From contig DATMVI010000520.1 in the NCBI GenBank assembly GCA_035563275.1, positions 1 to 35,631 on the forward strand: a stretch of 35,631 nt of DNA, in the 5' to 3' direction. This stretch comes from Pyrinomonadaceae bacterium. GTDB taxonomy: Bacteria > Acidobacteriota > Blastocatellia > Pyrinomonadales > Pyrinomonadaceae. The position numbers and the translations under genes are program-made. Shown here piece by piece: positions 2,651-20,142 of this stretch (the first letter of the stretch is position 1; each line of letters begins with the position of its first letter). The notes under the pieces are model-generated. The model was not told the DNA's origin, made no database searches, and saw only the letters and a list, made by a program, of their open reading frames with translations.

Positions 2651-3553
2651 ATGCTTCCGCCAACGCCCAAAATCTCCATCGTCACCCCTTCGCTCAATCA
2701 GGCCGATTTCCTTGAGGCCAGCATGCGGAGCGTGCTGTCGCAGGACTACCCGAACCTCGAATACATCGTGGTTGACGGCGGCTCGACCGACGGCAGCGTC
2801 GAGATCATCAAGAAGTACGAGCCACGCCTCAAGTTCTGGTCGAGCGAGCCGGACGAGGGCCACTGCGACGCGCTCAACAAAGGCTTCGCGCACGCCACCG
2901 GCGAGATCATGGCGTGGATAAACAGCGACGACATGTACTGCCCGTGGGCCTTTCGGACCGCGGCCGGCATCTTCGCGGCCTTCCCCCAGATCAAGTGGCT
3001 GACGACGCTCAACCCCGGCCTCTGGGACTGGCACGGCTTCTGTATGGGGTTCGTGACGGTGTCGGGCTTTTCGCGCGAGGCTTTCCTCGACGGGTGCTAC
3101 CTGCCGCCGCTCGACCGCAGTCTGGCCATCGAGTGGATTCAACAGGAGTCCACCTTCTGGCGGCGCGAGTTGTGGGAGGAGGCCGGCAGCTACATCTCGC
3201 CCGAGTTCTTCTACGCCTTCGACTTCGACCTCTGGGCCAAGTTCTTCTCCCACGCGGAACTCTACGCCACCGTCTCGCCCCTCGCCGGCTTCCGCGCGCA
3301 GGTCAACCAGAAGACGCGCTCGATGGAGCAGTACACAGTCGAGGGGAAGGTCGTCTTGGAGCGGATGCGCCGCCGGTTCGGGTGGGAGCCCGACGGCGTG
3401 AGGAATTTTCTCCGCCGCACCGACCTCAACAAGGTCGGCGCCCTCAAGCCCCTGCTTGAGCCGCGCTGGAGCTACCGCGGCAAGCGCGTCGTCCGCGGCG
3501 ACATGAACACGCGCTCGGCCAGTTGGCGGGTCGAGGAGTACAGGTTCACTTAA
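2651..3553 (+). CDS. family 2 glycosyltransferase
   Basis: 300 aa. The N-terminus ISIVTPSLNQADFLEASMRSVLSQDYPNLEYIVVDGGSTDGS...NSDD is a typical GT-A/GT2 signature with a DxD-like motif. Confidence 0.85.
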   Translation: MLPPTPKISIVTPSLNQADFLEASMRSVLSQDYPNLEYIVVDGGSTDGSVEIIKKYEPRLKFWSSEPDEGHCDALNKGFAHATGEIMAWINSDDMYCPWAFRTAAGIFAAFPQIKWLTTLNPGLWDWHGFCMGFVTVSGFSREAFLDGCYLPPLDRSLAIEWIQQESTFWRRELWEEAGSYISPEFFYAFDFDLWAKFFSHAELYATVSPLAGFRAQVNQKTRSMEQYTVEGKVVLERMRRRFGWEPDGVRNFLRRTDLNKVGALKPLLEPRWSYRGKRVVRGDMNTRSASWRVEEYRFT

Positions 3554-4376
3554 CTCGCGCGGGTATCACGTAACCGAGCGGCCTGATGTGCTCGTACCAG
3601 AACTCCGGCTCGAACTCCATCCACTTATGACACCCGAAAGGTAGTGAGTGACCGCACTCGCGGAAGAGCCTGCCGGGGTTGACCTCGAATGAGAACTGAC
3701 GCGCGACCTCGTAAGGGGCGACGCGGAAACTCGGGAAACGCTCGGCCACCACGCGCCCCCAGAAAACGTCTTCGTTATAATAATTTGCCCTGTCGTTGAA
3801 CGGGGCGAAAAAATTGTTTCGGTACGTCAGCGCCCCGATAAGTCTCTTGGTGTCGTACTCGCCCCGCCTCCAAGCCCTCAAGACATCTGTCGCCGGCTGC
3901 TGGTAGCGCCAGCTCCCGGAGATTTGTAAGACCGCCCGCGTGCGGCGCAAAGAGAAGCCGGAGTTACCTACCCCGATCGGCCTCGCGTCGCGCGCCGCGT
4001 GCTGCCAACCTTCGAACCACGGCGCCCCGACGTAGTCCCAGCCTTTCGAGCACCACTCCGACAGTTCGTCACGAAAGACGAAGGCGTCGAGTTCGTAGGT
4101 GAGGATGTATTCGAACCGGGCGTAACGCCGGTACAGGAACGGTAAAATCTTCAATCGGTTATAGGCTCTGTAGCTCGACATCCATTCGGGCGGGATGAAA
4201 TCTACTGCTAACGCGGGCGCCATCGCGCGGTAAGCGCTAACGTCCAACCCTTCGGGGCAGACCAGACGTAAGGGGTGGCGGTTTAAAACCCGAAGACACT
4301 GTCGGAAAGAAATCTCCTCGTACCATTCGAGCCGGGGTTTATGGGAGAAGACGAGGACGACCGCGCGATTCGACAT
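3546..4376 (-). CDS. DUF5672-like protein (putative glycan-modifying enzyme)
   Basis: 276 aa. Resembles the DUF5672 family often found in polysaccharide loci (VLVFSHKP..., GVGNSGFSLRR, FGCHKW). Visibly lower GC than its neighbours. Converges on the GT2 gene with an 8-nt overlap. Confidence 0.45.
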   Translation of the reverse strand: MSNRAVVLVFSHKPRLEWYEEISFRQCLRVLNRHPLRLVCPEGLDVSAYRAMAPALAVDFIPPEWMSSYRAYNRLKILPFLYRRYARFEYILTYELDAFVFRDELSEWCSKGWDYVGAPWFEGWQHAARDARPIGVGNSGFSLRRTRAVLQISGSWRYQQPATDVLRAWRRGEYDTKRLIGALTYRNNFFAPFNDRANYYNEDVFWGRVVAERFPSFRVAPYEVARQFSFEVNPGRLFRECGHSLPFGCHKWMEFEPEFWYEHIRPLGYVIPARVK

Positions 4377-4424: not shown

Positions 4425-5345
4425 TCAGGCCGCGCGGGCGATGCAATCCCTCAACACCCGGCCGACGACCTCGATGTAAGGGCTTTGGAGAATCGTGCGG
4501 TGAGCGCCGGGGATCATGTGCGCCTCGACGCCGCCGCCGGCGAGCGGCCCCCAGCCGAGGTCGGGCGGCGCGGACGGGTAGGTGCCGTGCCCCGTGCGCA
4601 GGAGCGTGATCGCCCCCGGGTACGGCTTATGCTCGTAGCCAAAGAGCGCCTGCTGGTTGGACTGCTCCACCCGCGCCATCCGGCAGAGGTCGGCGTGCGG
4701 CAGGCTCATGTGCGCCGGCTGGCGCTCGGCCGTCTTCAACTGCTCGACGACGTAGTCGAGCAGCCGCTCGGGGTCGAGGCCCCGCATGTGGCTCACCGAG
4801 AGCGACACCTCTTTGCGCAGGCGCCAGTGCCAGTAGAGCGCGCCGTCGAAGTCGCCCTCCCACGGCGGCTTGAGGCCGTCGCAGGAAGTGTCTATGAGCG
4901 CCAGCAGCCCCACGCGCGAGCCCCCGGCGCAGAGCTGCTGCGCCATCTCGTAGGCGATGTGGCCGCCGAGGCTGAAGCCGGTGAGCAGGTACGGCCCCTC
5001 GGGCTGCACGGCGCGCACGGCCGCGACGTAGCAGGCGGCCATCTCTTCGAGGCGGGTGAAGGGCTCGTCGTCCGTGTCGAGGCCGCGCGCCTGAAGGGCG
5101 TAGAAGGTCTGGTCTTCGCCGATCATGCGGGCCAGATCGATGTAGGACGCGACCGAGCCGCTGAGCGGGTGGACGCCGAAGAACTTCTTCCCCGAGCCGC
5201 CCGGCTGCATCTCGACCATCGGCGACCAGTCGCGGCTTTGATTTACGGGGGCGGCGGCGCGGCCCTTCAGCCGCCTTTCGAGCAGCGCGCGCCGGGCGCG
5301 TGAGAGGTTGGCCAACCTGCCCGCGAGGCTTTCGTTGGTGGACAT
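4425..5345 (-). CDS. free-standing thioesterase (alpha/beta hydrolase, NRPS/PKS TE-domain type) with N-terminal LSxxRRxLLExRLKG helix
   Basis: The internal ATG at 5345 gives 306 aa starting MSTNESLAGRLANLSRARRALLERRLKG. Nucleophile elbow GFSLGGHIAYEM and C-terminal GAH (IPGAHRTIL) are as in type I TE domains. The 387-aa track ORF has an Arg-rich, unlikely extension. Confidence 0.75.
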   Translation of the reverse strand: MSTNESLAGRLANLSRARRALLERRLKGRAAAPVNQSRDWSPMVEMQPGGSGKKFFGVHPLSGSVASYIDLARMIGEDQTFYALQARGLDTDDEPFTRLEEMAACYVAAVRAVQPEGPYLLTGFSLGGHIAYEMAQQLCAGGSRVGLLALIDTSCDGLKPPWEGDFDGALYWHWRLRKEVSLSVSHMRGLDPERLLDYVVEQLKTAERQPAHMSLPHADLCRMARVEQSNQQALFGYEHKPYPGAITLLRTGHGTYPSAPPDLGWGPLAGGGVEAHMIPGAHRTILQSPYIEVVGRVLRDCIARAA

Positions 5346-5539
5346 CGCTCCGCCCCGTCCGCGCCGGCGCGAGGGCCTCCGACGACGGAGAGCCGGGGCG
5401 GAAAGAAGTGTCTGAAGGTACTTGCGCGACCCGCAACCTCGGCTGACAAGGTCGGAGTTGTATCCCTCCCGGCGGACTTGGGAGTCGTGCCCCTCCGACC
5501 TTTCGGAACGTCTCCAACCGGGGCTCCGTGCGCCTCGTG

Positions 5540-6112
5540 TTAACCGAACTGCCGCGCGACCTGTAGACGGCCGTAGACGCGATCCCACTCGGCGACGGCC
5601 GCCGGGCCGAGCCGCTCGCTGACCTTACGCAGGAAGGGCGCCCAGATGGCGCCGACGTTGGCCGGGTCTTTGCGCACCCAGCGGGCGTCCTGCTCCAGCA
5701 CGTCGATCAGCGTCAGCCAGAGCAGGCCGGTGAACTCCTCCTCGGTGACGGGGAGCGGGCATTTCAGGAAGCGATCCCACAGCCGCGGGGTTGCGTCGCC
5801 CTCGAAGCTGTCCTGAAGCGACTCGTCCGACGCGGCGCAGTAGAGGTAGACGACCTGCTCCGCGTCCGCGCCGATGAGGCCGGCGATCTCGGCGCGCCGG
5901 CTGATGGGCAGCGCGAAGTCCTCGAAGCCCTGCGCCCCGTAGATGGAATGGAACAGGCCCGCCCTCACCATGTACTCCGGGCTGCCCAGCCTCTCGAAAT
6001 ACTTCGACACCCCGAGCGAGTGTTGATAGAAGCTGCTCTCGCTGGGGTGGCGCACCTCCTGCATCCCGAGTTCGAGCAGGAAGTTCTTCAGCGGGGCAAA
6101 GTCAGTCGCCAT
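5540..6112 (-). CDS. hypothetical protein, HD-domain-like helical protein (DUF6817-like, tentative)
   Basis: 190 aa. The motif AGLFHSIYGAQGFEDF, preceded by HSLGVSKYFERLG, resembles uncharacterised HD-related families. Codon usage is consistent with coding. Confidence 0.5.
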   Translation of the reverse strand: MATDFAPLKNFLLELGMQEVRHPSESSFYQHSLGVSKYFERLGSPEYMVRAGLFHSIYGAQGFEDFALPISRRAEIAGLIGADAEQVVYLYCAASDESLQDSFEGDATPRLWDRFLKCPLPVTEEEFTGLLWLTLIDVLEQDARWVRKDPANVGAIWAPFLRKVSERLGPAAVAEWDRVYGRLQVARQFG

Positions 6113-8594: not shown

Positions 8595-9678
8595 TTGATT
8601 CCCCGCGCGCCGCGCCGCGCCGGACGCCCGTCGCGACGGCGGCAGGACTGATCTGGACCGGCTTCTGCTCGCGCACCCACGGCGTGAAGCGGTCGCCGCC
8701 CGCGTTGAGCAGCCCGGCCAGAGGGTTCTCGGGGCGGCGGCGAATCTGGTTGCAGTTCCGGCAGAGCGGGAGTCGCGCCTGCCCGCGCCCGGCGTGGCGG
8801 CGGCGGAACTCTTTCATCGCGGGGGCGTTCCACGCCCCGAGCACGCCCATCTCCTGCACGCTGCCGACGGGCGAAGTCCGGTTCAGGTCGAGGCAGCAGA
8901 TGTAGACCATCCCGTCCCACGAGATGGGCAGCTTCTTCCAGAGGTTGATGCAGGGGATGTAGTCGTCGTCGGAGAAGGGCTGGACTTTGTACTGCTCGCG
9001 CACCTGATGGCGGTGCGAGCCGGGCCAGTAGTCGGCCCACGTGAAGCGGTACTCGTCGGGCGGGCAGTCGTCGAACAACCGCGCGAAGCTCTTCGGGAAG
9101 GCCGCCTCGGAGTCGGGGTCGTAGTACCGGATGTTTTTGATGACCGTGTAAGTCGTCCGCCGGTTCCCCTCCCGCCTGAGCCGCAGGAAGTGACGGATGT
9201 TCTCGACCGTCTCGGCGAAGTGGCCGCGCGCGCGCATCGCCTCGTAAGTTTCGGGCGTGTCGCCGTCGAGGCAGAAGACGAGCTTGTCGATGCCGGCGTC
9301 GAGCAGACCTTCGCTGATGCGGGGCGTCAGCCGGGTCGCGTTCGTGTCGAGGAAGACGTACATGCCCGCCCGCTTCAGCTCGCGCACCATCCGCACCAGC
9401 TCCGGGTGGAGGGCGCTCTCGCCGCCGAGGTTGAGCGCCACCTCGGGCCGAAACGGGGCGATCTCCCCGACGATGCGCTCGAAGAGGCTCATCTCCATCA
9501 GGCCGCGCTCGACCGTCGGGTAGTTGACCGAGACGGGGCACATCGGGCAACGCAGGTTGCAGTGGTTGGTCGGCTCCAGATTGACGAGGAGCGGCGGGTA
9601 GGGGAGGCGGCTGACGCCGAGGCGGTAACAGACGTTGAAGGTAAGCAGCGACTTCAGCTTGCGGACAGACTGGAGCAT
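8581..9678 (-). CDS. radical SAM protein with SPASM-like C-terminal domain
   Basis: 365 aa. CNLRCPMCPV cluster, GGESALHPEL, and C-terminal Cys motifs (IPCINLW, YICCLD, LCRNCNQ). Confidence 0.8.
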   Translation of the reverse strand: MLQSVRKLKSLLTFNVCYRLGVSRLPYPPLLVNLEPTNHCNLRCPMCPVSVNYPTVERGLMEMSLFERIVGEIAPFRPEVALNLGGESALHPELVRMVRELKRAGMYVFLDTNATRLTPRISEGLLDAGIDKLVFCLDGDTPETYEAMRARGHFAETVENIRHFLRLRREGNRRTTYTVIKNIRYYDPDSEAAFPKSFARLFDDCPPDEYRFTWADYWPGSHRHQVREQYKVQPFSDDDYIPCINLWKKLPISWDGMVYICCLDLNRTSPVGSVQEMGVLGAWNAPAMKEFRRRHAGRGQARLPLCRNCNQIRRRPENPLAGLLNAGGDRFTPWVREQKPVQISPAAVATGVRRGAARGESSGEQ

Positions 9679-9883
9679 GACGCCTCCGCGCGCACTGCCC
9701 CGGCGCGCCGTCGCGCCCCCGCCCGAGGGGGAGGCACGGCCGCCGTCTCTGACGGACTGTGAGTGTCTAGGTCATGGCGTATGGGCGGGGGGCCGCCGCG
9801 ATCCTCGGTTGGGAGGCGAGTTTCTTTAACCCCGACTGTCAACGTTGGAAATCGCGGAGGCCCCCCGCGCGCGAACGGCCCGG

Positions 9884-10603
9884 CTAGGACGCCGCGCGCA
9901 CCGGCATCCCGAACCCGACGGGGAGCGCAAGGTTCAGCGCCGACTGCTCGTTGGTGTAGAGCGGGCGGATGGCCGTCGTGTAGTAGGCGGAGACGAGGCG
10001 GCCGCCGTCCCACTCGACGCGGATGTCTTCGACCTCGCGGACGAGCGGCGACTGGAGCGAGAGGCCCGTGTCCCACCTGTAGGGCACGATGGTCAGCCCG
10101 TCCAGCTCCTCGCCGCTCTTCGCCAGCAGCTTGTAGCGGACGATGCCCGTCGCCTCGCCGCCGGCCGACGGGACGAGGTAGTCGCGGTAGGGCGTCAGGT
10201 TCTTTTCGAGCGGCGGGAGGTGGCTCGTGCCCCACATCCTGTGGACGGAGACGAGACGGCCGCCCTCCATGTAGACTTCGCCGCTCACGTGCAGGTCGAG
10301 CACCTTGGCGCCGCTGGCGTCGTAGATGACGCCGTGGCGCGCCGGCTCGACCCTGTAGGACTCGGCCGACACCGCGCGCAAGTCCTGACCTTCGGCGACC
10401 GGGCGCGAGAAGAAGGAGCTCGTCGGGTGCGAGCAGATCGCGGGGCAGGAGACGGGGTCGAAGCCGGCCGGGAACTTCGGCGAGGCTTCGAGGTGCAGGC
10501 TGCACGTGCCCGCTTCGAAGCTGCCAACGCCCTCGCCGTTCATATCGAAAGTCTGGCCGTTAACCTCGGCGTGGAGCCGAAAGTCAATGGTGATGTCCTT
10601 CAT
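9884..10603 (-). CDS. GFP-like (11-stranded beta-can family) protein lacking the X-Tyr-Gly chromophore triad
   Basis: The internal ATG at 10603 is preceded by aaaggaaagcacc (RBS) and gives 239 aa. IDFRLHAEVNGQTFDMNGEGVGSFEAGTCSLHL matches the GFP/DsRed N-terminal signature (VNGHxFxIxGEGxGxxxxGxxxxxL). SSFFSRP parallels GFP QCFSRYP. YMEGGRLVSVHRMWGTS parallels GFP KFEGDTLVNRIELKGID. The comparison was done from memory of GFP/DsRed sequences, not by a search. Confidence 0.5.
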   Translation of the reverse strand: MKDITIDFRLHAEVNGQTFDMNGEGVGSFEAGTCSLHLEASPKFPAGFDPVSCPAICSHPTSSFFSRPVAEGQDLRAVSAESYRVEPARHGVIYDASGAKVLDLHVSGEVYMEGGRLVSVHRMWGTSHLPPLEKNLTPYRDYLVPSAGGEATGIVRYKLLAKSGEELDGLTIVPYRWDTGLSLQSPLVREVEDIRVEWDGGRLVSAYYTTAIRPLYTNEQSALNLALPVGFGMPVRAAS

Positions 10604-10642
10604 GGTGCTTTCCTTTCTTGGAAGAGGTGACAGAAGGATTTG

Positions 10643-10662
10643 GCGTCCCCCGCGGGGGACGC
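10643..10662. promoter_or_regulatory. perfect 20-bp GC palindrome upstream of the GFP-like gene
   Basis: gcgtcccccg/cgggggacgc is self-complementary and lies 40 nt upstream of the ATG at 10603. It could be an operator or a 5'-UTR hairpin. Confidence 0.3.
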
Positions 10663-10964
10663 GAATGAGGCAGCGAGCGATCACTTCGCTCACCTGACCG
10701 GAGAATGGCGATTGACGACCTTAAGACGACTTCCGACTGGTAATAACGTGATAAAGAGCAGCGCGCTGGCAGGCTTGGTTGTGAGCCTCATCCCGACGGG
10801 TGAAGCGGCCGGCCGCCTCGCCCAGAAGAGGCGACGGCCCCCGACTCTCGAACGCTCTGTCCCCTTGATGCGGCAGTCAGTAGGCGGATGTGCGCTGCAC
10901 AATACGCCCGTTGCGCGCGAATGTCAACGGTCTCTTTCGGGGCGGCGGCGGGCCCAGAAATTTA

Positions 10965-10992
10965 TTGACTTTGCCCCGTTCGTGGATATTAT
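10965..10992 (+). promoter_or_regulatory. sigma70-type promoter candidate for the epimerase gene
   Basis: TTGACT (10965-10970), 16-nt spacer, TATTAT (10987-10992). It would give a ~165-nt leader before the ATG at 11166. Confidence 0.4.
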
Positions 10993-11165
10993 GTGCCGGC
11001 GCAAAAGTCGTTAACTCCTCAGCGGGCCATCCAAAAAAGGCGGCGAGACATCGCCCGCCGAACGCGGCCAAGCACGCCTTCGCCGCGGCCACCAGAGCAG
11101 CAGGCGGCGCGAGGCCCCGGGGGGCGGCCTCGACCCACCTCTCCACCGCGCGGGGTCAAATTCCT

Positions 11166-12219: not shown

Positions 12220-13749
12220 TCAACTCGGGCCGGCCGGGCGGGCCTCCGGCGGCAGGCCGAACGAAGCCAGCAGCGGCCCGGCCGAGAGCGCGCGCTCGCC
12301 ACAGACGGCGAGCAACGATTCCGCGTCGTGCGTCGCGCCGCGGCCCCAGAGGCCGCGCAGCAACGCGCCCGCCCCGCCCGACTCGAACCACCGGGCCCCG
12401 TACGTGCCGACCAGATGTTTATTCAGACTCGCTTGCAGGAACCACGCCGAAAGGTACTGGAAGGAATACAGCCCGCCGTCCATCTCGGCCAACCCGAAGT
12501 CGCCCGGCACGCTCACGCCGACCGCCTCCTTCATCCGCAGCGCGTAGAGGTCTGACGAAAGCTCGAGCTTTTGGCGGCGGTGCAGCTCGGCCTCGTAGAG
12601 CGTCTTGGCGCAGTAGCGGCGGAACATGTACAGCTCGATAAAATTCGCGTAGGCGGCGAAGGCCGTGGCGTCGCGGGCCGGCATCCCGAGGCGGGCGTCG
12701 AGGTATTCGGCCGAGCGCAGGAGGGCGGCCGTCTGGTAGGCGAAAGTCTCCGCCACGGTGTCGTCGAGCAGGCAGCGCAGCTCCCACGGCAGGGCCGGGT
12801 CGGTGAGGCCGAAGTGGAAGGCGTGGCCCGCCTCGTGCAGCACCTCTTCGTAGTCGCGGTGGCCGCCCGAGGGCTTCGCCACGAGGTAAACTTCTTCGGG
12901 CACGCGCACGCCCGCGCAGAAGGCGCGCGGCGACTTGTTCGGGCGAGGCTCAAGGTCGAGCCGGATGTTCTGCCGACGCTCAAGCCCGACCCGCAAACCC
13001 GCGGCGGTCGCGCGCAGCGCCGGCAGGATGCCCGCGGCCGGGAAGTATTCGTCCCACTCGTCGCCGCGCAGGATGCGCGGGAAATCGAACCACGCCACCT
13101 CGCCCGCGCCGACGCCGACGTAGCGCCGCGCGTAATAATCCAACTCACGCCGGTAAAGATCGTCCGTGGCCCGCAGAGACGCTTTCGCCAGCGCCACCAG
13201 CCGGCCGACCGGCAACTGTTTCCACCCGGCGTAGGCGTCCGCGTACGACAGGCCGCAGAGGTCTTCGACGAGGTCGTACGTCGCCGCCCAGCGTTCGAGC
13301 ATCAGGGGCCGGAGCGAGGCCGTGAGTCGCGCGAAGGCTTCGGCCAGTTCGGCCCTCCGCCCGCGCTCGGGCAGGTTGCGGAGCAGCGGCTGCGCCATGT
13401 GGTAAGCGACGCCGCGCCCCTCGAAGACGAGCTCGGCACGCAGCTTCCACGTCTCGACCTCGTCGGCCAAGCGCTGCGTGCCGGCGGACAGGTAATGGTT
13501 GGCCCGCTCGACCAGCCGCAGGCGCGCCCGCCGAAGCTCCTCGGCGGAGCCGGCCGCGCCGACGGCCGCGCGCTCCGCGAGCACCTGCGGCTTGCCGAAG
13601 AGGTCTGAGTAGGATTTGAAAACGGCCGTCAGGTTGGCTTCGTCGCGCAGGCCGGCGGCGACGGCGTAGCTCTCGTAGTTGAGGCGCGCGAGGAACTCGG
13701 CGAAGCGTGCCGAGTTCCTCGCGGGATGAACGTTTGAGCCGGCAGGCAT
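12220..13749 (-). CDS. M3-family oligoendopeptidase (PepF-like)
   Basis: 509 aa. Zinc motif HEAGHAFH, with size and architecture of the oligoendopeptidase F-like family. Confidence 0.75.
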   Translation of the reverse strand: MPAGSNVHPARNSARFAEFLARLNYESYAVAAGLRDEANLTAVFKSYSDLFGKPQVLAERAAVGAAGSAEELRRARLRLVERANHYLSAGTQRLADEVETWKLRAELVFEGRGVAYHMAQPLLRNLPERGRRAELAEAFARLTASLRPLMLERWAATYDLVEDLCGLSYADAYAGWKQLPVGRLVALAKASLRATDDLYRRELDYYARRYVGVGAGEVAWFDFPRILRGDEWDEYFPAAGILPALRATAAGLRVGLERRQNIRLDLEPRPNKSPRAFCAGVRVPEEVYLVAKPSGGHRDYEEVLHEAGHAFHFGLTDPALPWELRCLLDDTVAETFAYQTAALLRSAEYLDARLGMPARDATAFAAYANFIELYMFRRYCAKTLYEAELHRRQKLELSSDLYALRMKEAVGVSVPGDFGLAEMDGGLYSFQYLSAWFLQASLNKHLVGTYGARWFESGGAGALLRGLWGRGATHDAESLLAVCGERALSAGPLLASFGLPPEARPAGPS

Positions 13750-13785: not shown

Positions 13786-16700
13786 TCAGGCGCGCCGGAT
13801 GGTGATGGCCAGCTTCGCGCCGCCGATGTCAACCTCCTCCGTGTGCTCCGGCCCGGCGAGCCGGTTGTATTCGAGCGCTGAGATTAAGCCTTCGCCCTTG
13901 ATGAAATCCTCGTGGTCGCGGACGGCTTTGAGCAGCGCTGCGTCGGCGTCGAGGCCGAGCGCGATGTGGTCGGACACGTCCATGCCGGCGTTCTTGCGCG
14001 CGTTCTGCACGTGGCGCAGCACGTCGCGCGCCTGCCCCTCCGCGATCAGTTCCGGCGTCAGGTTCGTGTTGAGCGCGACGAGGTAGCTGCCCTCCTCGAC
14101 GGCCGCGTAACCTTCGGGACTCTTCACGTCGACGAGGAAGGCGTCGGGCGCGAACTCCATCGTCTCGTCGCCGACGCGGACGGGCGTCTTCTCGCCGCGC
14201 CGGACGTTGACGGCGACCTGCCGCGGGTCAACCTCCTTCAGGGCTTTGACGAACTGCGGCAGCCTGCCGCCGAGAGCGCGGCCGACGACCGGCAGGTTGG
14301 GCCGCAGCGAGTAGCTGACGAAGTTCGTGTCGAAGTCGAGCCGCGTCACCTGCTTGGCGTTGAGTTCTTCCTTGATCAACTCCTCGAACTTGCCGAGCGC
14401 GGCCTGCTCCCTCTCGGTGCCGACGCGCACCAGAATCTCGGGCAGGGGCTGGCGCACCTTGACCGACGCGCCGGCGCGCGCCGCGCGGCCGAGGTCGATG
14501 ATCTTCAGCAGCAAGTCCATGTCGGCCAGCAGCGCCTCGTCAATCAGCGCGGGGTCGGCCGCGGGCCACTCGGCGAGGTGGACGGAGGCGGGCGCGTCCG
14601 GCTCGACGGCCCGCACGAGGTTCTGGTATATCGCCTCGGTGACGAAGGGCACCATCGGCGCGCCGAGCTTGCTGACCGTGACCAGCGCCTCGTAGAGCGT
14701 GAGGTAGGCGGCGCGCTTGTCGGCGTCGTCGGCGCTCTTCCAGAAGCGCCGGCGGTTGCGCCGCACGTACCAGTTCGAGAGGTCGCGGACGACGAACTCG
14801 TTGAGGGTGCGCGCGGCCGAGGTCACGTCGTACTCGTCGAGGCTGCGCGTGACCGACTCGGCGAGGCGGTGCAGCTTGGCCGTCAGCCAGCGGTCGATCT
14901 CCGGCCGCTCGGCGTGGGGCAGCGGCGTCCGCAGGTCGGGTTCGTCGAGGTTGGCGTAGAGCACGAAGAAGCCGTAGACGTTCCAGAGCGTGAGCAGGAA
15001 ATCCTTGACCACCTCGGAGACGTGCGCGGGGTTGAAGCTCTTGTTCGCGTCGGGCGGGCTGGAGGTGTACAGGTACCAGCGCAGCGCGTCGGCCCCCTGC
15101 TCGTTGAGCACGCTCCACGGGTCTACCGCGTTGCCCCTCGACTTCGACATCTTCTGGCCCTTCGCGTCGTTGATGAAGCCGAGCACGATGCAGGTCTTGA
15201 AGGCCGAGGTCTCGGGAAACACGTGGGCGAGCGCGCCGGCCGCGACGCCGCGCTCGGCGTCGGCCCGCGCCGTCAGCAGCGTGGCCAGCGCGTGCAGGCT
15301 GTAGAACCAGCCGCGCGTCTGATCCATCGCCTCGCAGATGTAGTCCGCCGGGAAGCGCGACGGCAGCAGGCCGGCGTTCTCGAAGGGATAGTGCCACTGC
15401 GCGTAGGGCATCGCGCCCGACTCGAACCAAACGTCCACGGTGTCGGGCACGCGGCGGTAGGTCTGCCCGCCGCGCTCGAAGGTGATCTCGTCGATGTAGG
15501 GGCGGTGGAGGTCGAGCGTGTCGAGCCGCCGGCCCGTCAGCTCTTCGAGCTCGGCGACGCCCGAGACGCAGATGCTCTCCTCGCCGTTCTCGCTGACCCA
15601 GACGGGCAGCGGCGCGCCCCAGTACCTCTCGCGCGAGATGGCCCAGTCGATGTTGTTCTCCAGCCACTTGCCGAAGCGGCCGGTCTTGATGTTCTCGGGC
15701 AGCCAGTTGATGCGGTAGTTGTTCTCCAGCAGCTTGTCCTTGACGGCGGTGGTTTTGATGTACCAACTGGTCTTGGCGTAGAAGAGCAGCGGCGAGTCGT
15801 CGCGCCAGCAGAAGGGGTAGGCGTGTTTGACGCGCTCGGAGCGGTAGAGCAGGCCGCGGCGTCTGAGGTCGCGCGAGATGAGCTTGTCGGCCTCCTTGAA
15901 GAAGAGGCCCGCGTAAGGCCCGGCGGCCTCGGGCGCGTCCGGCGCTCTGACCTCCGGGTGCACCTTGCCCGTGCGGTCGACGGAGAAGAGGGTCGGCAGC
16001 CCGTGCCTGCGCCCGACTTCGAGGTCGCCGTAGGCCGGGGCGATGTGGACGATGCCCGTGCCGTCTTCGACGGAGACGAAGTCGTCGGCGATGACGGCGA
16101 AGGCCCGCGCGAGGTCTTCGCTTTCGGGCGCGCGGCCCGAGAGGATTTGCTCGTAGGTCAGCCCGGCCAGCGCCTCGCCGGGGAACGCGCGCAGCAGTTT
16201 GTAGTTGCCCTCGCCGAACACGTCCGGGGCCAGCGCGGCGGCGAGGATGTAAAGCTCCGTCTCCCCCTCCTGCCCGTGCGCGGCGGGCGCTTCGAAGAGG
16301 CCGTACTCGGCGTCGGCGCGCACGGCGAGCGCGGTGTTGGCGCCGAGCGTCCACGGCGTCGTCGTCCACGCGAGGAAGGAGACTCGTCTCCCCGCCTCCC
16401 CCGGCGTCAACAGCCCGGCCCCCGCGAGCGCGTCGCGGCGGGCCGGGAACTTCGGCCACACCGAGGGGTCGTCCACGTCCTCCTTCATGCCCTGCGAGAC
16501 TTCGTGGTCGGCGAGGCTCGTGTTGCAGCGCGGGCAGTGCATCGTGGTCTTGTAATCCTGATAGAGCAGGCCGCGCTCCCAGAAGGATTTCAGGATCCAC
16601 CAGCACGTCTCGATGTAGCCGTTCTCGTAGGTGATGTAGGCGCGGTCGAGGTCAACCCAGAAGCCGATGCGCTCGGTCAGCCGGTTCCAGTCCTGTATGT

Positions 16701-17079
16701 AGCGGAAGACCGACTCGCGGCAGAGCCGGTTGAACTCGGCGATGCCGAACTTCTCGATGTCCTGCTTGCCGGTCGAGCCAATCTCCTTCTCGATCTCGAC
16801 CTCGACGGGCAGGCCGTGCGTGTCCCAGCCGCCGCGCCGCTCGACGCGGAAGCCGCGCATCGTCTTGTAGCGCGGGAAGAGGTCTTTGAAGGCGCGGGCG
16901 CTGACGTGGTGGATGCCGGGCCGGCCGTTGGCCGTCGGCGGCCCCTCGTAGAAGACGTAGTCGCCCCGCGGCGCGGGCTTCCCGACCGAGGCCGCGAAAA
17001 TCTCGTGCTCCCGCCAGAAGCGGATGATCTCTTCTTCTAATTGTGGGAAGCTGACGTTCCGGTTGATGCTCTTGAACAT
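13786..17079 (-). CDS. ileS: isoleucine--tRNA ligase (long, type 2-like form)
   Basis: 1097 aa. HIGH-type motif PPTANGRPGIHHV, KMSKS motif KMSKSRGN, CP1 editing region, WHYPFEN. Confidence 0.95.
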   Translation of the reverse strand: MFKSINRNVSFPQLEEEIIRFWREHEIFAASVGKPAPRGDYVFYEGPPTANGRPGIHHVSARAFKDLFPRYKTMRGFRVERRGGWDTHGLPVEVEIEKEIGSTGKQDIEKFGIAEFNRLCRESVFRYIQDWNRLTERIGFWVDLDRAYITYENGYIETCWWILKSFWERGLLYQDYKTTMHCPRCNTSLADHEVSQGMKEDVDDPSVWPKFPARRDALAGAGLLTPGEAGRRVSFLAWTTTPWTLGANTALAVRADAEYGLFEAPAAHGQEGETELYILAAALAPDVFGEGNYKLLRAFPGEALAGLTYEQILSGRAPESEDLARAFAVIADDFVSVEDGTGIVHIAPAYGDLEVGRRHGLPTLFSVDRTGKVHPEVRAPDAPEAAGPYAGLFFKEADKLISRDLRRRGLLYRSERVKHAYPFCWRDDSPLLFYAKTSWYIKTTAVKDKLLENNYRINWLPENIKTGRFGKWLENNIDWAISRERYWGAPLPVWVSENGEESICVSGVAELEELTGRRLDTLDLHRPYIDEITFERGGQTYRRVPDTVDVWFESGAMPYAQWHYPFENAGLLPSRFPADYICEAMDQTRGWFYSLHALATLLTARADAERGVAAGALAHVFPETSAFKTCIVLGFINDAKGQKMSKSRGNAVDPWSVLNEQGADALRWYLYTSSPPDANKSFNPAHVSEVVKDFLLTLWNVYGFFVLYANLDEPDLRTPLPHAERPEIDRWLTAKLHRLAESVTRSLDEYDVTSAARTLNEFVVRDLSNWYVRRNRRRFWKSADDADKRAAYLTLYEALVTVSKLGAPMVPFVTEAIYQNLVRAVEPDAPASVHLAEWPAADPALIDEALLADMDLLLKIIDLGRAARAGASVKVRQPLPEILVRVGTEREQAALGKFEELIKEELNAKQVTRLDFDTNFVSYSLRPNLPVVGRALGGRLPQFVKALKEVDPRQVAVNVRRGEKTPVRVGDETMEFAPDAFLVDVKSPEGYAAVEEGSYLVALNTNLTPELIAEGQARDVLRHVQNARKNAGMDVSDHIALGLDADAALLKAVRDHEDFIKGEGLISALEYNRLAGPEHTEEVDIGGAKLAITIRRA

Positions 17080-17124
17080 AAAACAGAAGTGCCGGCTCGC
17101 GCCGCGCGGCCCCGACTGGTTATA

Positions 17125-17262
17125 ACTGTGCGGTCAGGATTGGCCGCGGCGCGGCGGTTGAAATGGTTCGACCGCCCCGAACGGGAGCGGGATTAATCTT
17201 GCTGAACGAAATGACCGTGTTGACGAATATAATCTCCCCGGTTGACTTTAGCAACAGCCTGC
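17125..17262 (+). repeat. copy B of the dispersed intergenic element (see 2461-2615)
   Basis: Same blocks and orientation as copy A. TATAAT lies at 17228-17233. It sits between divergent ileS (start 17079) and lysS (start 17356). Confidence 0.8.
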
Positions 17263-17355
17263 CGCGGCGGCGCGCGCGGGGCCGAAACGGCGCGGCGGCG
17301 AGACTTGCCTCGGGCGGCGAAGCGTGATTAAGTTGCTGGAATTTCGGATGAGCTT

Positions 17356-19023
17356 ATGAGCAGATCGAAGAACTGGATCGAACAGACCGCCGACAAGGTC
17401 GAGGAGTTCGCGCGCCAGCGGAAGGGCGACGGCGCGAAGATCGTCTGCGCGTCGGGCATCAGCCCTTCCGGGCCGATTCACCTCGGCAACCTCCGCGAGA
17501 TCATCACCGTCCACCTCGTCACCGAGGAGTTGCGGCGGCGCGGGCGCGAGGCCGAACACATCCACTCGTGGGACGACTTCGACCGCCTGCGCAAAGTGCC
17601 GGCCGGCGTGCCGCAGGAGTTCGCGCAGCACATCGGCCGCCCCATCAGCGACATCCCCGACCCGGCCGGCGAGTACGAGTCTTACGCCATGCGCTTCATG
17701 TCCGAGTTCGAGCGCAGCGTCGCCCGGCTCGGCATCGGCCCGCGCTACGTGCGCCAGTCCGTCGCCTACCGCCGCGGCGACTACCGGGAACAGATCAGGG
17801 TCGCGATGCGGAAGCGGTTCGAGATTTTCGACATCCTCGTCAAGTACCAGACGCCCGGCCGCCACGAGCGGCCCGCCGAGGAGCGCCGCGCCGAGTACTA
17901 CCCCTTCAAGGTTTATTGCGAGGACTGCGGGCGGGACACGACGGTCATCGAAGCCTACGACGACGCGGCCTCGACCGTCTCTTACGCGTGCCAGTTCCGC
18001 GAGTACCGCGGCTCGTTCAGCCTCGGCGAGAAGGTCGCCGGCAAGCTCGTCTGGAAGGTGGACTGGCCGATGCGCTGGAGCTACGAGGCGGTCGACTTCG
18101 AGCCGGGCGGCGAGGATCACTCCGCGCCGGGCAGCAGCTACACCGTCGGCAAGCAGCTCGTGAAGGAAATCTACGGCGGCGCCGCGCCCTACTTCATCGG
18201 CTACGCCTTCGTCGGGCTCGCCGGCCGCTCGAAAATCTCCAGCTCCTTCGGGACGAGCGCGACGCCCGAGGCGGCCTTGGACATCCTCGAGCCGTGCATC
18301 GTCCGCTGGCTCTACATCCGCCGTAACGCCGGGCAGAAGTTCGACATCAACTTCGGGCAGGAGGTGGTGCGCCTCTACGACGAGTGGGACTCGTTCGTCG
18401 CGCGCGTGGCCGCGGGCAAGGCGGACGAGGCCGAACGGCTCGTCTACGAGCGCTGCGTCCGCACGTCCGAGGGCGAGGTGGCGAGGTCGAAGTTGACCAT
18501 CCCCTTTCGCATCCTCAGCTCGGCGGCCGACATCACGCAGGGTAACGTCGAACAGATTCTCCGCATCGCCTCCGACCACCTCGAAGACCCGCCCCCGCGC
18601 GAAGAATTGAGGCGGTCGCTTGAGCCGCGCCTGACCTGCGCCATCAACTGGGCCGTCAACTACCTGCCCGAGGACGAGCGGACGCGCATCAGGTCGGGCC
18701 ACGACCGCGCGACCTACGAGTCGCTCGACGAGGCGCACCGCCGCGGCATCCGGATGCTGCTCGAACGGCTCGACGAGTACTGGAGCCTGCAAGGTCTGAC
18801 GACGCTCGTCTACGGCGTCCCCAAACTCCTCCTCGGCCTGCCCATCGACGCGCCGCCTAGCGAGGAGATCAAGCCGGTGCAGCGCGGCTTCTTCATCGCC
18901 GTCTACCAACTCCTCTGCGGGAGCGACACCGGCCCGCGCCTCCCCACCCTCTTCCTCTCGCTCGGCAAGGAACGCCTGCGGGCGCTCTTAACACCGGGCG
19001 GAGGGGACGGGGAGCAGGCTTAG
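17356..19023 (+). CDS. lysS: lysine--tRNA ligase, class I
   Basis: 555 aa. SGISPSGPIHLGNLREI (class I HIGH-like) and overall class I LysRS organisation, with KISSSFG in the KMSKS position. Confidence 0.85.
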   Translation: MSRSKNWIEQTADKVEEFARQRKGDGAKIVCASGISPSGPIHLGNLREIITVHLVTEELRRRGREAEHIHSWDDFDRLRKVPAGVPQEFAQHIGRPISDIPDPAGEYESYAMRFMSEFERSVARLGIGPRYVRQSVAYRRGDYREQIRVAMRKRFEIFDILVKYQTPGRHERPAEERRAEYYPFKVYCEDCGRDTTVIEAYDDAASTVSYACQFREYRGSFSLGEKVAGKLVWKVDWPMRWSYEAVDFEPGGEDHSAPGSSYTVGKQLVKEIYGGAAPYFIGYAFVGLAGRSKISSSFGTSATPEAALDILEPCIVRWLYIRRNAGQKFDINFGQEVVRLYDEWDSFVARVAAGKADEAERLVYERCVRTSEGEVARSKLTIPFRILSSAADITQGNVEQILRIASDHLEDPPPREELRRSLEPRLTCAINWAVNYLPEDERTRIRSGHDRATYESLDEAHRRGIRMLLERLDEYWSLQGLTTLVYGVPKLLLGLPIDAPPSEEIKPVQRGFFIAVYQLLCGSDTGPRLPTLFLSLGKERLRALLTPGGGDGEQA

Positions 19024-19092: not shown

Positions 19093-20142
19093 CTACCCGC
19101 CGGCCTCCCCTTCCTCCGCGGGCTTCCTCATGCGCGCCGAGACTTTGCTGCCGTGCTTGTCGGCCTTGACGGTGATGCGCTGGACGTAGACCCGGGTCGT
19201 CGCCGCGTTCTCGTGATCCAAAGCCTCCTGCGCTTCCAGATAACTGCCGGTCTCCTCGGCGACGATGCGCGCGTAGGTGTGACGCGTCTGGTGGACGTGG
19301 ACGTGGCCGATGCCGGCCTCCGCCGCGTAGAGCTTGAGGTTCTCGGCGAAGGAGCGCGACGAGAGCGGCGCGCCCGGCTTGCCGGCGCGGTCGTGGCGCG
19401 TCCAGAGCGGGCGGGGCGAGCCGAGCACGTCCTCGCGCCCCGCCGCCCTGAGGTAGGCGACCAGCGCCTCGTAGGCCGCCGCATCGCCCACCTCGCGGCC
19501 GACGAACTTCCCGCCTTTGCGCCGGTACTTGATGACGAGCCGGCCGCCCGCGCGTTCGAGGTCGCTGCCCCTGAGCGAGATCACCTCGCTGCGGCGCAGG
19601 CCCGTCAGGAAGAAGAAGAGCAGCAGCGCGTAGTCGCGCTTGCCGACGACCGAGCCGGCCTCGGCCCGCGCGCGCGCGGCGTCGAGCAGGCGGTTCATCT
19701 CGTCGTCGGAGAGCGCCTTCGTCAGCTCCGACTGGTAGGGTCGCGGGTAGCGCGGGCGGGCCTGCGCCGCGGGGTTGGCGCGGATGTGCGCGGAGAGTTG
19801 CGGGTCGCTCATCAGCCAGCGGTAGAAGGCCGAGACGCGCGAGACGCGCGCGTAGACGGTGGCCGGCTTGAGGCCGCGCGCCTCCATGTCGGCGCGCCAG
19901 CGCGCCACGTCCTCCGGCCCCACGTCGCCGGGGTGCTTGGCCGCGAACTCGAAGAAGTTGACGACGGCCTGCACCTTGTCGCGCAGCTTGTCGCGGCGGT
20001 CTAAGGTCTCGGGGCGCGTGTTGGCGTCGGCCCAGAGCGTGACGGCGCGGCGCAGCGCCTCGGCCGAGTCGCGCGCGGCGAGGGCGTTCGTGGCCGGCGT
20101 GGCCCCGCCCTCAGACTCGCGCCCGCTCTCGTCCGTCATCAT
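19093..20142 (-). CDS. tyrosine-type site-specific recombinase/integrase
   Basis: 349 aa. N-terminal SAM-like core-binding region. Catalytic-domain motifs: GLRRSEV (Arg I), HQTRHTYA (His-x-x-Arg), HENAATTRVYV (His/Tyr). Confidence 0.85.
   Translation of the reverse strand: MMTDESGRESEGGATPATNALAARDSAEALRRAVTLWADANTRPETLDRRDKLRDKVQAVVNFFEFAAKHPGDVGPEDVARWRADMEARGLKPATVYARVSRVSAFYRWLMSDPQLSAHIRANPAAQARPRYPRPYQSELTKALSDDEMNRLLDAARARAEAGSVVGKRDYALLLFFFLTGLRRSEVISLRGSDLERAGGRLVIKYRRKGGKFVGREVGDAAAYEALVAYLRAAGREDVLGSPRPLWTRHDRAGKPGAPLSSRSFAENLKLYAAEAGIGHVHVHQTRHTYARIVAEETGSYLEAQEALDHENAATTRVYVQRITVKADKHGSKVSARMRKPAEEGEAGG

Follow-up and report, generated by a model that had tools for sequence, protein, structure and literature searches.

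A divergent bacterial family of the GFP-like superfamily with a cysteine-bearing core, encoded in a gene cluster with radical SAM/SPASM enzymes and often a type-2 isoleucyl-tRNA synthetase

The DNA analysed here (the window) is a stretch of 35,631 nucleotides (nt) from contig DATMVI010000520.1 of a Pyrinomonadaceae bacterium (NCBI GenBank assembly GCA_035563275.1), and it carries a gene for a protein of 239 amino acids (aa) with the fold of green fluorescent protein (GFP). The product of this gene, referred to below as the barrel protein, is related to the GFP superfamily by its fold and by remote homology, and it represents a new divergent family of the GFP-like superfamily that falls outside the fluorescent-protein family. 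The gene heads an operon with two radical S-adenosylmethionine (rSAM)/SPASM enzymes and is probably part of an as yet undescribed pathway for protein modification or for an antibiotic.

Two alignments, each also used as a profile, underlie the comparisons: A1, made of 26 close homologues, and A3, a wider superfamily alignment of 47 sequences. The AlphaFold2 model obtained with the 26-sequence alignment has a mean predicted local distance difference test score (pLDDT) of 91.5 and a predicted template-modelling score (pTM) of 0.84. It consists of eleven strands (residues 4-14, 17-28, 33-41, 82-94, 100-113, 116-127, 132-147, which is kinked, 150-161, 166-176, 187-198 and 203-214) arranged around an internal segment at residues 42-66, with a disordered C-terminal tail at residues 220-239. 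A Foldseek comparison of this model with the PDB yielded 1277 matches at E<=1e-3; GFP-like barrels are present in each of the 50 listed (E from about 2e-14 to about 6e-14, TM-score 0.63-0.81, identity 14-20%). Sequence searches led to the same proteins. The single protein, searched with phmmer against the PDB sequences, gave only GFP-like matches, all weak (best E 0.04; 100 sequences at E<=10); the A1 profile matched 922 distinct sequences at E<=1 (best E 2e-5), the 60 listed all being GFP-like proteins or GFP fusions, and the A3 profile matched 887 GFP-like sequences at E<=0.001, with a best single barrel at E 3.6e-9. Alignment of A3 by hhalign with the three reference sequences avGFP, DsRed and mCherry gave a probability of 96.3% and an E-value of 1.7e-9 over 161 columns; with A1 alone only 43 N-terminal columns were aligned, and the wider A3 was required. 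The initial annotation, which was made from the letters of the window, had proposed a bacterial GFP-like beta-can, and the model, Foldseek, the profile searches, hhalign and the anatomy of the operon agree that it is a genuine one. No unrelated barrel family matched better.

Membership of the curated fluorescent-protein family is not claimed, since the protein falls below the Pfam gathering threshold. The local library model PF01353.27 gave no match for the query, a best E of 0.02 among the 26 homologues and no match at E<=0.01 among the 47 relatives, and precomputed matches to PF01353.28, mostly weak or faint, are recorded for some homologues. The query also had no match at E<=1 to nidogen G2F (PF07474), and NCBIfam holds no family for it. 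In a fold search of BFVD the strong matches were solely recombinant GFP-tagged viral proteins, and no natural viral relative was found there. That this threshold is missed in the local library, and that GC-rich DNA yields many spurious open reading frames (ORFs), could be taken to mean that the resemblance is due to chance or is an artefact of non-coding GC-rich sequence. Such an explanation has next to no probability against at least 26 homologues over a wide GC range, a confident AlphaFold2 model, 887-922 PDB matches, all GFP-like (for A1, among those listed), and the hhalign E-value of 1.7e-9, and we regard it as refuted by the profile, AlphaFold2, Foldseek and hhalign results. The ORF and its 239-aa product stand as the initial annotation gave them, but the gene lies on the minus strand, which that annotation had missed, and the plus-strand frame is not a gene. 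Other ORFs antisense to the barrel gene, such as that at 9845-10630 on the plus strand, are GC-rich artefacts whose cross-locus hits mirror the conservation of the real gene.

One of the parallels that had been drawn with GFP lies near the N-terminus, where residues 6-38 run alongside GFP residues 14-46 in HMMER alignments. Within the glycine signature of this region Asn15, Gly23, Gly25, Gly27 and Gly32 correspond to GFP Asn23, Gly31, Gly33, Gly35 and Gly40, and of these Gly23, Gly25 and Gly32 do not vary among the 47 superfamily sequences. Three further pairs named in the initial annotation, PKFPAGFDPVS with GKLPVPWPTLV, FFSR with CFSR and YMEGGRLVSVHRMWGTS with KFEGDTLVNRIELKGID, are all aligned by hhalign, and each motif listed there does occur in the protein. 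Residues 42-65 form the longest near-invariant block of A1 and occupy the position of the GFP chromophore helix. Here hhalign places Ile56-Cys57-Ser58 on GFP Ser65-Tyr66-Gly67 and leaves the three residues His59-Pro60-Thr61 inserted ahead of the shared FSR; the Phe48/Trp57 anchor agrees on this register, standing nine residues before Cys57 and Tyr66 respectively. The placement of the insertion leaves the register uncertain by up to three residues, but no register gives Tyr-Gly. As had been noticed, the dipeptide is missing from the central SCPAICSHPTSS, and it is missing as well from residues 42-68 of every one of the 26 homologues.

Cys57 is present in at least 90% of the 47 sequences and is the best-conserved non-glycine residue of the superfamily, while Cys53 and Cys34 are conserved within the clade of the window and are aligned with GFP Thr62 and Leu42. 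These two GFP positions we take to line the chromophore cavity, Leu42 being interior and near the chromophore; judged from the alignment, Cys34, Cys53 and Cys57 probably cluster in the interior of the barrel. The arginine of ARHGVIY had been put forward as a possible counterpart of GFP Arg96. This is plausible but ambiguous: Arg89 is conserved on strand 4, and hhalign sets it at Gln94 and Gly91 at Arg96. The conserved residues of strand 11 in A1 are Val204, Ala206 and Tyr208, none of them acidic, and the hhalign alignment stops short of this strand; a counterpart of Glu222 is probably absent. With Tyr-Gly absent, Cys57-Ser58 at the place of Tyr66-Gly67 and no acidic conserved residue on strand 11, classical autocatalytic fluorescence is very unlikely; the initial annotation had called it unlikely.

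The family is very rare and genuinely bacterial. HMMER, run exhaustively over 1.84 billion representative proteins, returned 34 at E<=1e-3, and a word-indexed search of 5.8 billion clusters returned 26 with the single sequence and 35 with a profile, the named members in the latter search all being described as 'hypothetical'. The hosts span Proteobacteria, Actinomycetota and Bacteroidota, and the clades differ in their core motif: SCPxICSHPTS in clade 1, to which the window belongs together with Roseibium marinum DSM 17023, MICN in clade 2 (Streptomyces sp. NPDC054802, Micromonospora saelicesensis), and ICC in a clade named after it (Acinetobacter baumannii, a Hymenobacter plasmid). The Roseibium, Streptomyces and Micromonospora strains are cultured, and the window sequence itself recurs in several metagenome assemblies.

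That the barrel gene heads an operon with two rSAM/SPASM enzymes (rSAM-A and rSAM-B) had been recognised from the start; the gene of a GT4 glycosyltransferase sits between the two, and an HExxH peptidase and a type-2 isoleucyl-tRNA synthetase (IleRS2) are parts of the cluster absent from the initial annotation. Other loci, designated by L numbers, were compared with the window over barrel identities of 37-72% and DNA GC contents of 51-74%. Wherever a clade-1 locus has enough flank, the trio of rSAM-A, GT4 and rSAM-B stands beside the barrel gene, despite a varied gene order in which, for example, the enzymes precede the barrel gene in L030 and the GT4 gene directly follows it in L039. Orthologues of rSAM-A adjoin the barrel gene in L010, L014, L001/3, L020, L007, L004/5, L030, L032 and L039. 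The rSAM-A orthogroup consists of 39 clusters at identities of at least 44%, after which there is a gap to at most 31%; it occurs on the same contigs as the barrel clade, and it is as rare as the GFP-like clade. GT4 is conserved in 7 locus groups, rSAM-B orthologues of 48-68% identity are found in L010, L004-6, L007 and L001/3, and peptidase homologues with an intact HExxH are found in L010, L004, L008 and L039. Further frequent members are a PhyH dioxygenase, a third rSAM/SPASM protein, an amidohydrolase, a domainless protein of 580-860 aa and an ATP-binding cassette (ABC) exporter. Tyrosine recombinases or transposases flank the cluster in three loci, namely the window, Roseibium (L007) and L032.

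Directly after the barrel gene, four locus groups (L004-6, Roseibium, L030/31 and L001-3) have a conserved ORF of about 64 aa that has an LTPExA helix and ends in Trp (…LTPExA…W*), usually followed by the 580-860-aa protein. This peptide looks like a scaffold or precursor peptide; neither it nor the 580-860-aa protein has a counterpart in the window or in L010. In Roseibium marinum (NZ_PPCN01000021.1) a 1.3-kb segment comprising the barrel and peptide genes is duplicated identically (L007 9759-11076 = L008 9759-11076), the copies being about 15 kb apart in an island that also holds three rSAM/SPASM genes, PhyH, IleRS2, an ABC exporter, GT4, a phage integrase and an rve transposase. In clade 2 (L024 2762-8412; L027 8001-13173) the barrel gene overlaps the start of PhyH and is translationally coupled to it, and PhyH is followed by a methyltransferase, an AMP-binding enzyme and a 2-oxoglutarate oxygenase, with a carbamoyltransferase in L024; these clusters have no rSAM and no GT4. 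Members of the 'ICC' clade lie among mobile-element genes without biosynthetic neighbours (L022 7733-8407; L040 8001-8690), next to DarA_N, SprT-like and ddrB-ParB helicase genes in L022 and near RHS toxins and transposases in L040, which is Hymenobacter plasmid NZ_CP110137.1.

The two rSAM enzymes of the window could not be assigned to any known NCBIfam identity, both scoring far below every cut-off; their best neighbours there, equally far below cut-off, are the 'maturase' families TIGR04317 and TIGR04311. The nearest solved relatives of both are BlsE, BtrN, GDGT-MAS and PqqE, all of them weak, with BlsE and BtrN at only about 33-35 bits. Pfam detected no PqqD domain or RiPP recognition element (RRE; RiPP, a peptide made by the ribosome and modified after translation) in either enzyme. 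No small precursor ORF lies beside the enzymes in the window or in L010, and the 205 nt that separate the barrel gene from rSAM-A contain no hidden precursor peptide. The PADLOC models gave only generic viperin-type rSAM similarity, and a known defence system is not supported.

Of the 11 loci with usable flanks, 6 have IleRS2 no more than 10 kb from the barrel gene (the window, L010, L004/5, L007, L019 and L024), and it is absent there in L027, L030, L032, L038 and L039. By a rough estimate a random gene is found within 10 kb of ileS in about 0.5% of genomes, and because six of eleven loci is so far from this figure the linkage is not due to chance. In the window the peptidase gene starts 36 nt after the IleRS stop codon; in L004/L005 IleRS2 comes directly after PhyH, and in Roseibium (L007) it comes after PhyH and is followed by the ABC exporter. 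L019 is a brine contig, while the barrel of L024 is only 30% identical to that of the window and has no rSAM partner, yet has IleRS2 nearby. The identities of IleRS and barrel to those of the window fall in parallel across loci, from 76% and 72% in L010 through 41% and 54% in L004 and 37% and 51% in L007 to 32% and 44% in L019. The synthetase of the window has the signature GIHH and the divergent IleRS2 of L024 has GTHH, both of the G/AXHH class, and the copies in L004 and L007 have the canonical HYGH. In IleRS2 the G/AXHH signature confers mupirocin hyper-resistance (PMC10485003).

The reading that we tentatively prefer, at somewhat less than an even chance, is that the barrel is a scaffold or substrate modified at its cysteine-bearing core by the enzymes of the cluster, with IleRS2 pointing to a product directed at IleRS and to self-protection. 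Made by the ribosome, the barrel protein would serve the pathway as scaffold or substrate and would be neither an enzyme nor a fluorescent protein. The rSAM/SPASM enzymes would modify the near-invariant buried GFDPVSCPxICSHPTS, in which Cys57 takes the position of Tyr66 and to which Cys53 and Cys34 are near, and other tailoring enzymes may act on this segment too. The rSAM step would take place before or during folding, as that of anSME does on sulfatases. A possible outcome is a Cys-derived crosslink, cofactor or warhead at the site where GFP forms its chromophore autocatalytically, and the mature product, either the holo-protein or a piece that the peptidase sets free from it, would act on IleRS, the linked synthetase serving for self-protection. 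We favour the barrel as scaffold or substrate because it is the sole element common to all clusters of biosynthetic type, because from one clade to the next a change of tailoring enzymes goes with a change of core motif, because the window offers no alternative small substrate and its rSAM enzymes have no leader-binding domains, and because the best-conserved region is the site of the superfamily's post-translational chemistry. The two identical copies of the barrel gene in a single Roseibium marinum island are counted in its favour as well, as a matter of dosage. An enzyme-installed crosslink or cofactor had been raised as a speculation in the initial annotation, and as far as sequence comparison can tell it is made more plausible by the constancy of the trio across barrel identities of 37-72% and GC contents of 51-74% and by the rarity of rSAM-A. 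A more specific version of this reading, which we consider rather unlikely in its entirety, makes the GFP barrel a protein-sized RiPP-like precursor, or 'reaction vessel', whose buried Ile-Cys core would be converted by the rSAM/SPASM enzymes, the glycosyltransferase and the tailoring enzymes to a chromophore, cofactor or warhead. The HExxH peptidase would then excise an IleRS-inhibiting warhead and IleRS2 would confer immunity, while the core chemistry would be ancestral in bacteria and the autocatalytic chromophore of metazoans derived.

Several observations weigh against the barrel as a modified substrate. L019 has no rSAM within 8-10 kb and yet retains Cys53 and Cys57, and in four locus groups the Trp-terminal peptide could be the true rSAM substrate. 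In the folded barrel the proposed target is buried, which would leave only the unfolded chain for the enzymes to act on. The position of Cys57 at Tyr66 hinges on where the three-residue insertion is placed. About half of all IleRS2, housekeeping ones included, carry G/AXHH (PMC10485003); because the signature is this common and the linked copies of L004 and L007 have HYGH, GIHH was rejected as proof of a role in resistance. Besides PqqE, the weak relatives of the rSAM enzymes (BlsE, BtrN, GDGT-MAS) are sugar- or lipid-modifying enzymes, and with GT4, epimerase, carbamoyltransferase and amidohydrolase a small-molecule pathway fits equally well.

Such a pathway is the main rival, although we hold it to be somewhat unlikely. 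The cluster would make a small-molecule, glycoside- or nucleoside-like inhibitor of IleRS, the rSAM enzymes and GT4 acting on sugars and the barrel having an accessory part in binding, as a carrier, in sequestration, in immunity or as a chaperone for a reactive product. The nearest solved rSAM relatives would suit this, BlsE being from a nucleoside antibiotic pathway and BtrN from an aminoglycoside pathway, although these matches score only about 33-35 bits. Cluster variants contain GT4, a sugar epimerase, carbamoyltransferase, amidohydrolase, methyltransferase and ABC exporter, and the adjacency of IleRS2 matches a known logic of self-resistance; known inhibitors of aminoacyl-tRNA synthetases (aaRSs) are, moreover, often mimics of the aminoacyl-adenylate. 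However, the clade-2 clusters share the barrel, PhyH and sometimes IleRS, yet have no rSAM or GT4, which makes a common small-molecule scaffold unlikely, and conservation in the barrel peaks in the buried central segment and not on a surface or in a cavity. The central helix of a GFP fold takes up the interior of the barrel, with little room left for a ligand.

Two other explanations we consider improbable, each to about the same degree and clearly more so than a small-molecule pathway. One is that the barrel performs its own chemistry at Ile56-Cys57, by an N-to-S acyl shift or thioester, by backbone cleavage or by thiazoline formation, and that the neighbours act on the product or downstream of it. 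GFP-like barrels are known to promote backbone chemistry, and the cyclisation of GFP and the fragmentation of Kaede and asFP595 offer analogies; the Ile/Val-Cys pair at the chromophore-equivalent site is kept across clades, with or without rSAM partners, and the conserved interior Arg89 lies near the position of Gln94/Arg96. Against this, Ser replaces Gly67, and no conserved acidic residue of strand 11 stands at the place of Glu222. According to the other, the barrel has no internal chemistry and is an inert module for structure or protein binding, like nidogen G2F, and its neighbours would reflect joint transfer on a mobile island and not a shared function. The distant 'ICC' relatives on mobile elements and plasmids without biosynthetic genes, and the integrases that flank several clusters, would fit an inert module, but a dedicated rSAM-A orthogroup co-distributed with the barrel, the extreme conservation of the interior segment, and a linkage that survives rearrangement of gene order and wide differences in GC all argue against it.

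Table 1. Positions of the barrel gene, its sequence elements and neighbouring genes in the window, and of the Trp-terminal ORF in other loci
Feature	Position	Strand	Basis or remark
Coding sequence, 239-aa GFP-fold protein	9884..10603, including stop codon	-	ORF list and translation, AlphaFold2, Foldseek, 26 close homologues
Glycine signature VNGxxFxMNGEGxGxxxxG, residues 14-32	10508..10564	-	HMMER alignment to GFP
Cys34 codon, third conserved clade-1 cysteine	10502..10504	-	nearly invariant in A1; aligns with GFP Leu42
Central segment PxFPxGFDPVSCPxICSHPTSxxF, residues 42-65	10409..10480	-	A1 conservation, hhalign
Cys53 codon	10445-10447	-	
Cys57 codon	10433-10435	-	
Arg89 codon	10337..10339	-	invariant in A1, at least 90% in A3; candidate counterpart of GFP Gln94 or Arg96
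Ribosome-binding region AAGAAAGGAAAG	10608..10619	-	direct reading; kept in L010
Sigma-70-like promoter candidate TTGACA-17-TATTGT	10899..10927	-	consensus scan 10/12, pattern match only
rSAM/SPASM enzyme rSAM-A, 365 aa	8581..9678	-	Pfam Radical_SAM and SPASM
GT4 glycosyltransferase, 387 aa	7431..8594	-	Pfam Glyco_trans_1_4, Glycos_transf_1, GT4-conflict
rSAM/SPASM enzyme rSAM-B, 417 aa	6145..7398	-	Pfam
DUF6817 protein, 190 aa, last operon gene	5540..6112	-	Pfam; common only to L010 (69% identity)
NAD-dependent sugar epimerase/dehydratase, 349 aa	11166..12215	+	NCBIfam GDP-fucose synthase-like; Pfam Epimerase/GDP_Man_Dehyd on identical contigs
M3-like zinc metallopeptidase homologue, 509 aa, HEAGH at residue 305	12220..13749	-	weak Pfam/NCBIfam M3 matches
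Type-2 IleRS, 1097 aa, GIHH and KMSKS	13786..17079	-	Pfam tRNA-synt_1, Anticodon_1 and DUF5915
Tyrosine recombinase (phage integrase family)	19093..20142	-	Pfam Phage_integrase E 1.8e-21
Trp-terminal ORF, about 64 aa	L004 8710-8904; L007/L008 10716-10904; L030 9068-9268; L001 8777-9193 (tandem)		

The ATG at 10603 is the likely start of the barrel gene, as the N-termini of the 26 homologues align there; a longer GTG-initiated form of 269 aa finds no support in these N-termini. The element AAGAAAGGAAAG upstream of the start is kept in L010, where the barrel is 72% identical and the GC content is 51%, compared with 68% in the window, and the promoter candidate lies about 300 nt upstream of the barrel gene. 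Searches of the whole window against Rfam at gathering thresholds gave no match to a regulatory RNA, and the permissive E-value mode gave nothing in 9600-11100 (the barrel gene, its 5' leader and the downstream gap) or in 17000-17400 (the IleRS leader). By direct reading the N-terminus, MKDITIDFRL, has no apparent signal peptide, and the barrel protein is cytoplasmic.

The epimerase/dehydratase gene is divergent from the barrel gene and is not conserved in the other loci. The tyrosine recombinase lies two genes upstream of IleRS and flanks that side of the cluster. It is the sole hint of mobility in the window, where no tRNA gene and no GC anomaly marks an island. Between it and IleRS is a 553-aa ORF (17248-18909, minus strand) in which Pfam finds no domain and which the other loci lack. 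Beyond the other end of the operon are genes for a thioesterase-domain protein (4425-5588, minus strand), a DUF5672 protein (3546-4376, minus strand) and a GT2 glycosyltransferase (2651-3553, plus strand); of these the GT2 alone was matched in the other loci compared, weakly and in part, by a GT2 of L019 (37% over 89 aa). A protein with CarboxypepD_reg and an outer-membrane beta-barrel, resembling TonB receptors (21346-23967, plus strand), points to a diderm host.

The fluorescent proteins and chromoproteins of PF01353 (avGFP, DsRed, and those of copepods and anthozoans) share with the barrel protein the 11-stranded beta-can, the central segment and VNGxxFxxxGxGxG. The resemblance is colinear: FSR follows the core, strand 6 carries EGxxLV, and TPxxDxxxPxxxG stands opposite EPSxExxxPxDG of anthozoans. 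The protein differs from them in its identity of 14-20%, its sub-gathering Pfam score, Cys-Ser in place of Tyr66-Gly67, the HPT insertion, the probable want of a conserved Glu222 counterpart and its bacterial operon with rSAM/SPASM, GT4, peptidase and IleRS genes; fluorescent proteins need no partner enzymes. Should the barrel prove to be modified by the enzymes, it would represent a protein-derived cofactor or chromophore of a new class as well as a new type of SPASM substrate, and it could be of use in building enzyme-dependent reporters, perhaps oxygen-independent ones.

The GFP fold was long held to be a metazoan invention, and the initial annotation took it as established only there. This has been overtaken by a preprint of August 2026 describing a 'charge-network' family of bacterial GFP-fold proteins (bioRxiv 10.64898/2026.07.29.741452), the sole published bacterial GFP-fold family that we found, and the family of the window is a second, more divergent bacterial branch. 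According to the preprint, the 'charge-network' proteins keep Gly67, Arg96 and Glu222, have Met, Val or Phe at position 66, possess a buried and invariant network formed by Tyr168, two Arg and two Glu, are 33-46% identical to coral fluorescent-protein-like proteins and occur in genomic contexts that vary; neither rSAM enzymes nor cysteines are mentioned (bioRxiv 10.64898/2026.07.29.741452). Both families have a GFP fold in bacterial genomes and a residue other than Tyr at the chromophore position, and both are rare. Going by the description in the preprint, the family of the window differs in having Cys57-Ser58 at 66-67, in being far more divergent from fluorescent proteins and in its fixed enzyme neighbourhood. 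A second divergent bacterial lineage pushes the origin of the fold towards bacteria, and the fixed neighbours, unlike the contexts of the 'charge-network' family, make function testable.

Our search of the literature found no report linking GFP-like proteins with radical SAM enzymes or IleRS. Among rSAM/SPASM maturase systems (anSME-sulfatase, QhpD-QhpC, PqqE-PqqA, and the sactipeptide and ranthipeptide synthases) the likeness is one of adjacency only, a SPASM rSAM gene lying beside that of a Cys-bearing ribosomal product; like anSME, the rSAM enzymes of the window have no RRE domain. The anSME target motif (C/S)xPxR was considered and rejected: in S52-C53-P54-A55-I56-C57, S52-x-P54 fits the first three positions and Ile56 stands in place of the required Arg. 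Unlike the substrates of these systems, which are peptides or a sulfatase, the putative substrate here is a folded barrel of 239 aa.

The antibiotic clusters that bear an aaRS, such as those of mupirocin (mupM), thiomarinol, albomycin (SerRS), borrelidin (ThrRS) and SB-203207/altemicidin (IleRS) (see also PMC13518217), resemble the cluster of the window in having a full-length aaRS of drug-insensitive type inside or beside a biosynthetic-looking cluster. The recurrence of a type-2 IleRS makes the cluster a candidate source of a new IleRS inhibitor. An exporter in some variants of the window's family, and integrases flanking some, add to this likeness. In contrast to these antibiotic clusters, there are no genes for a polyketide synthase, a non-ribosomal peptide synthetase or another known scaffold, and the constant element is a GFP-fold protein.

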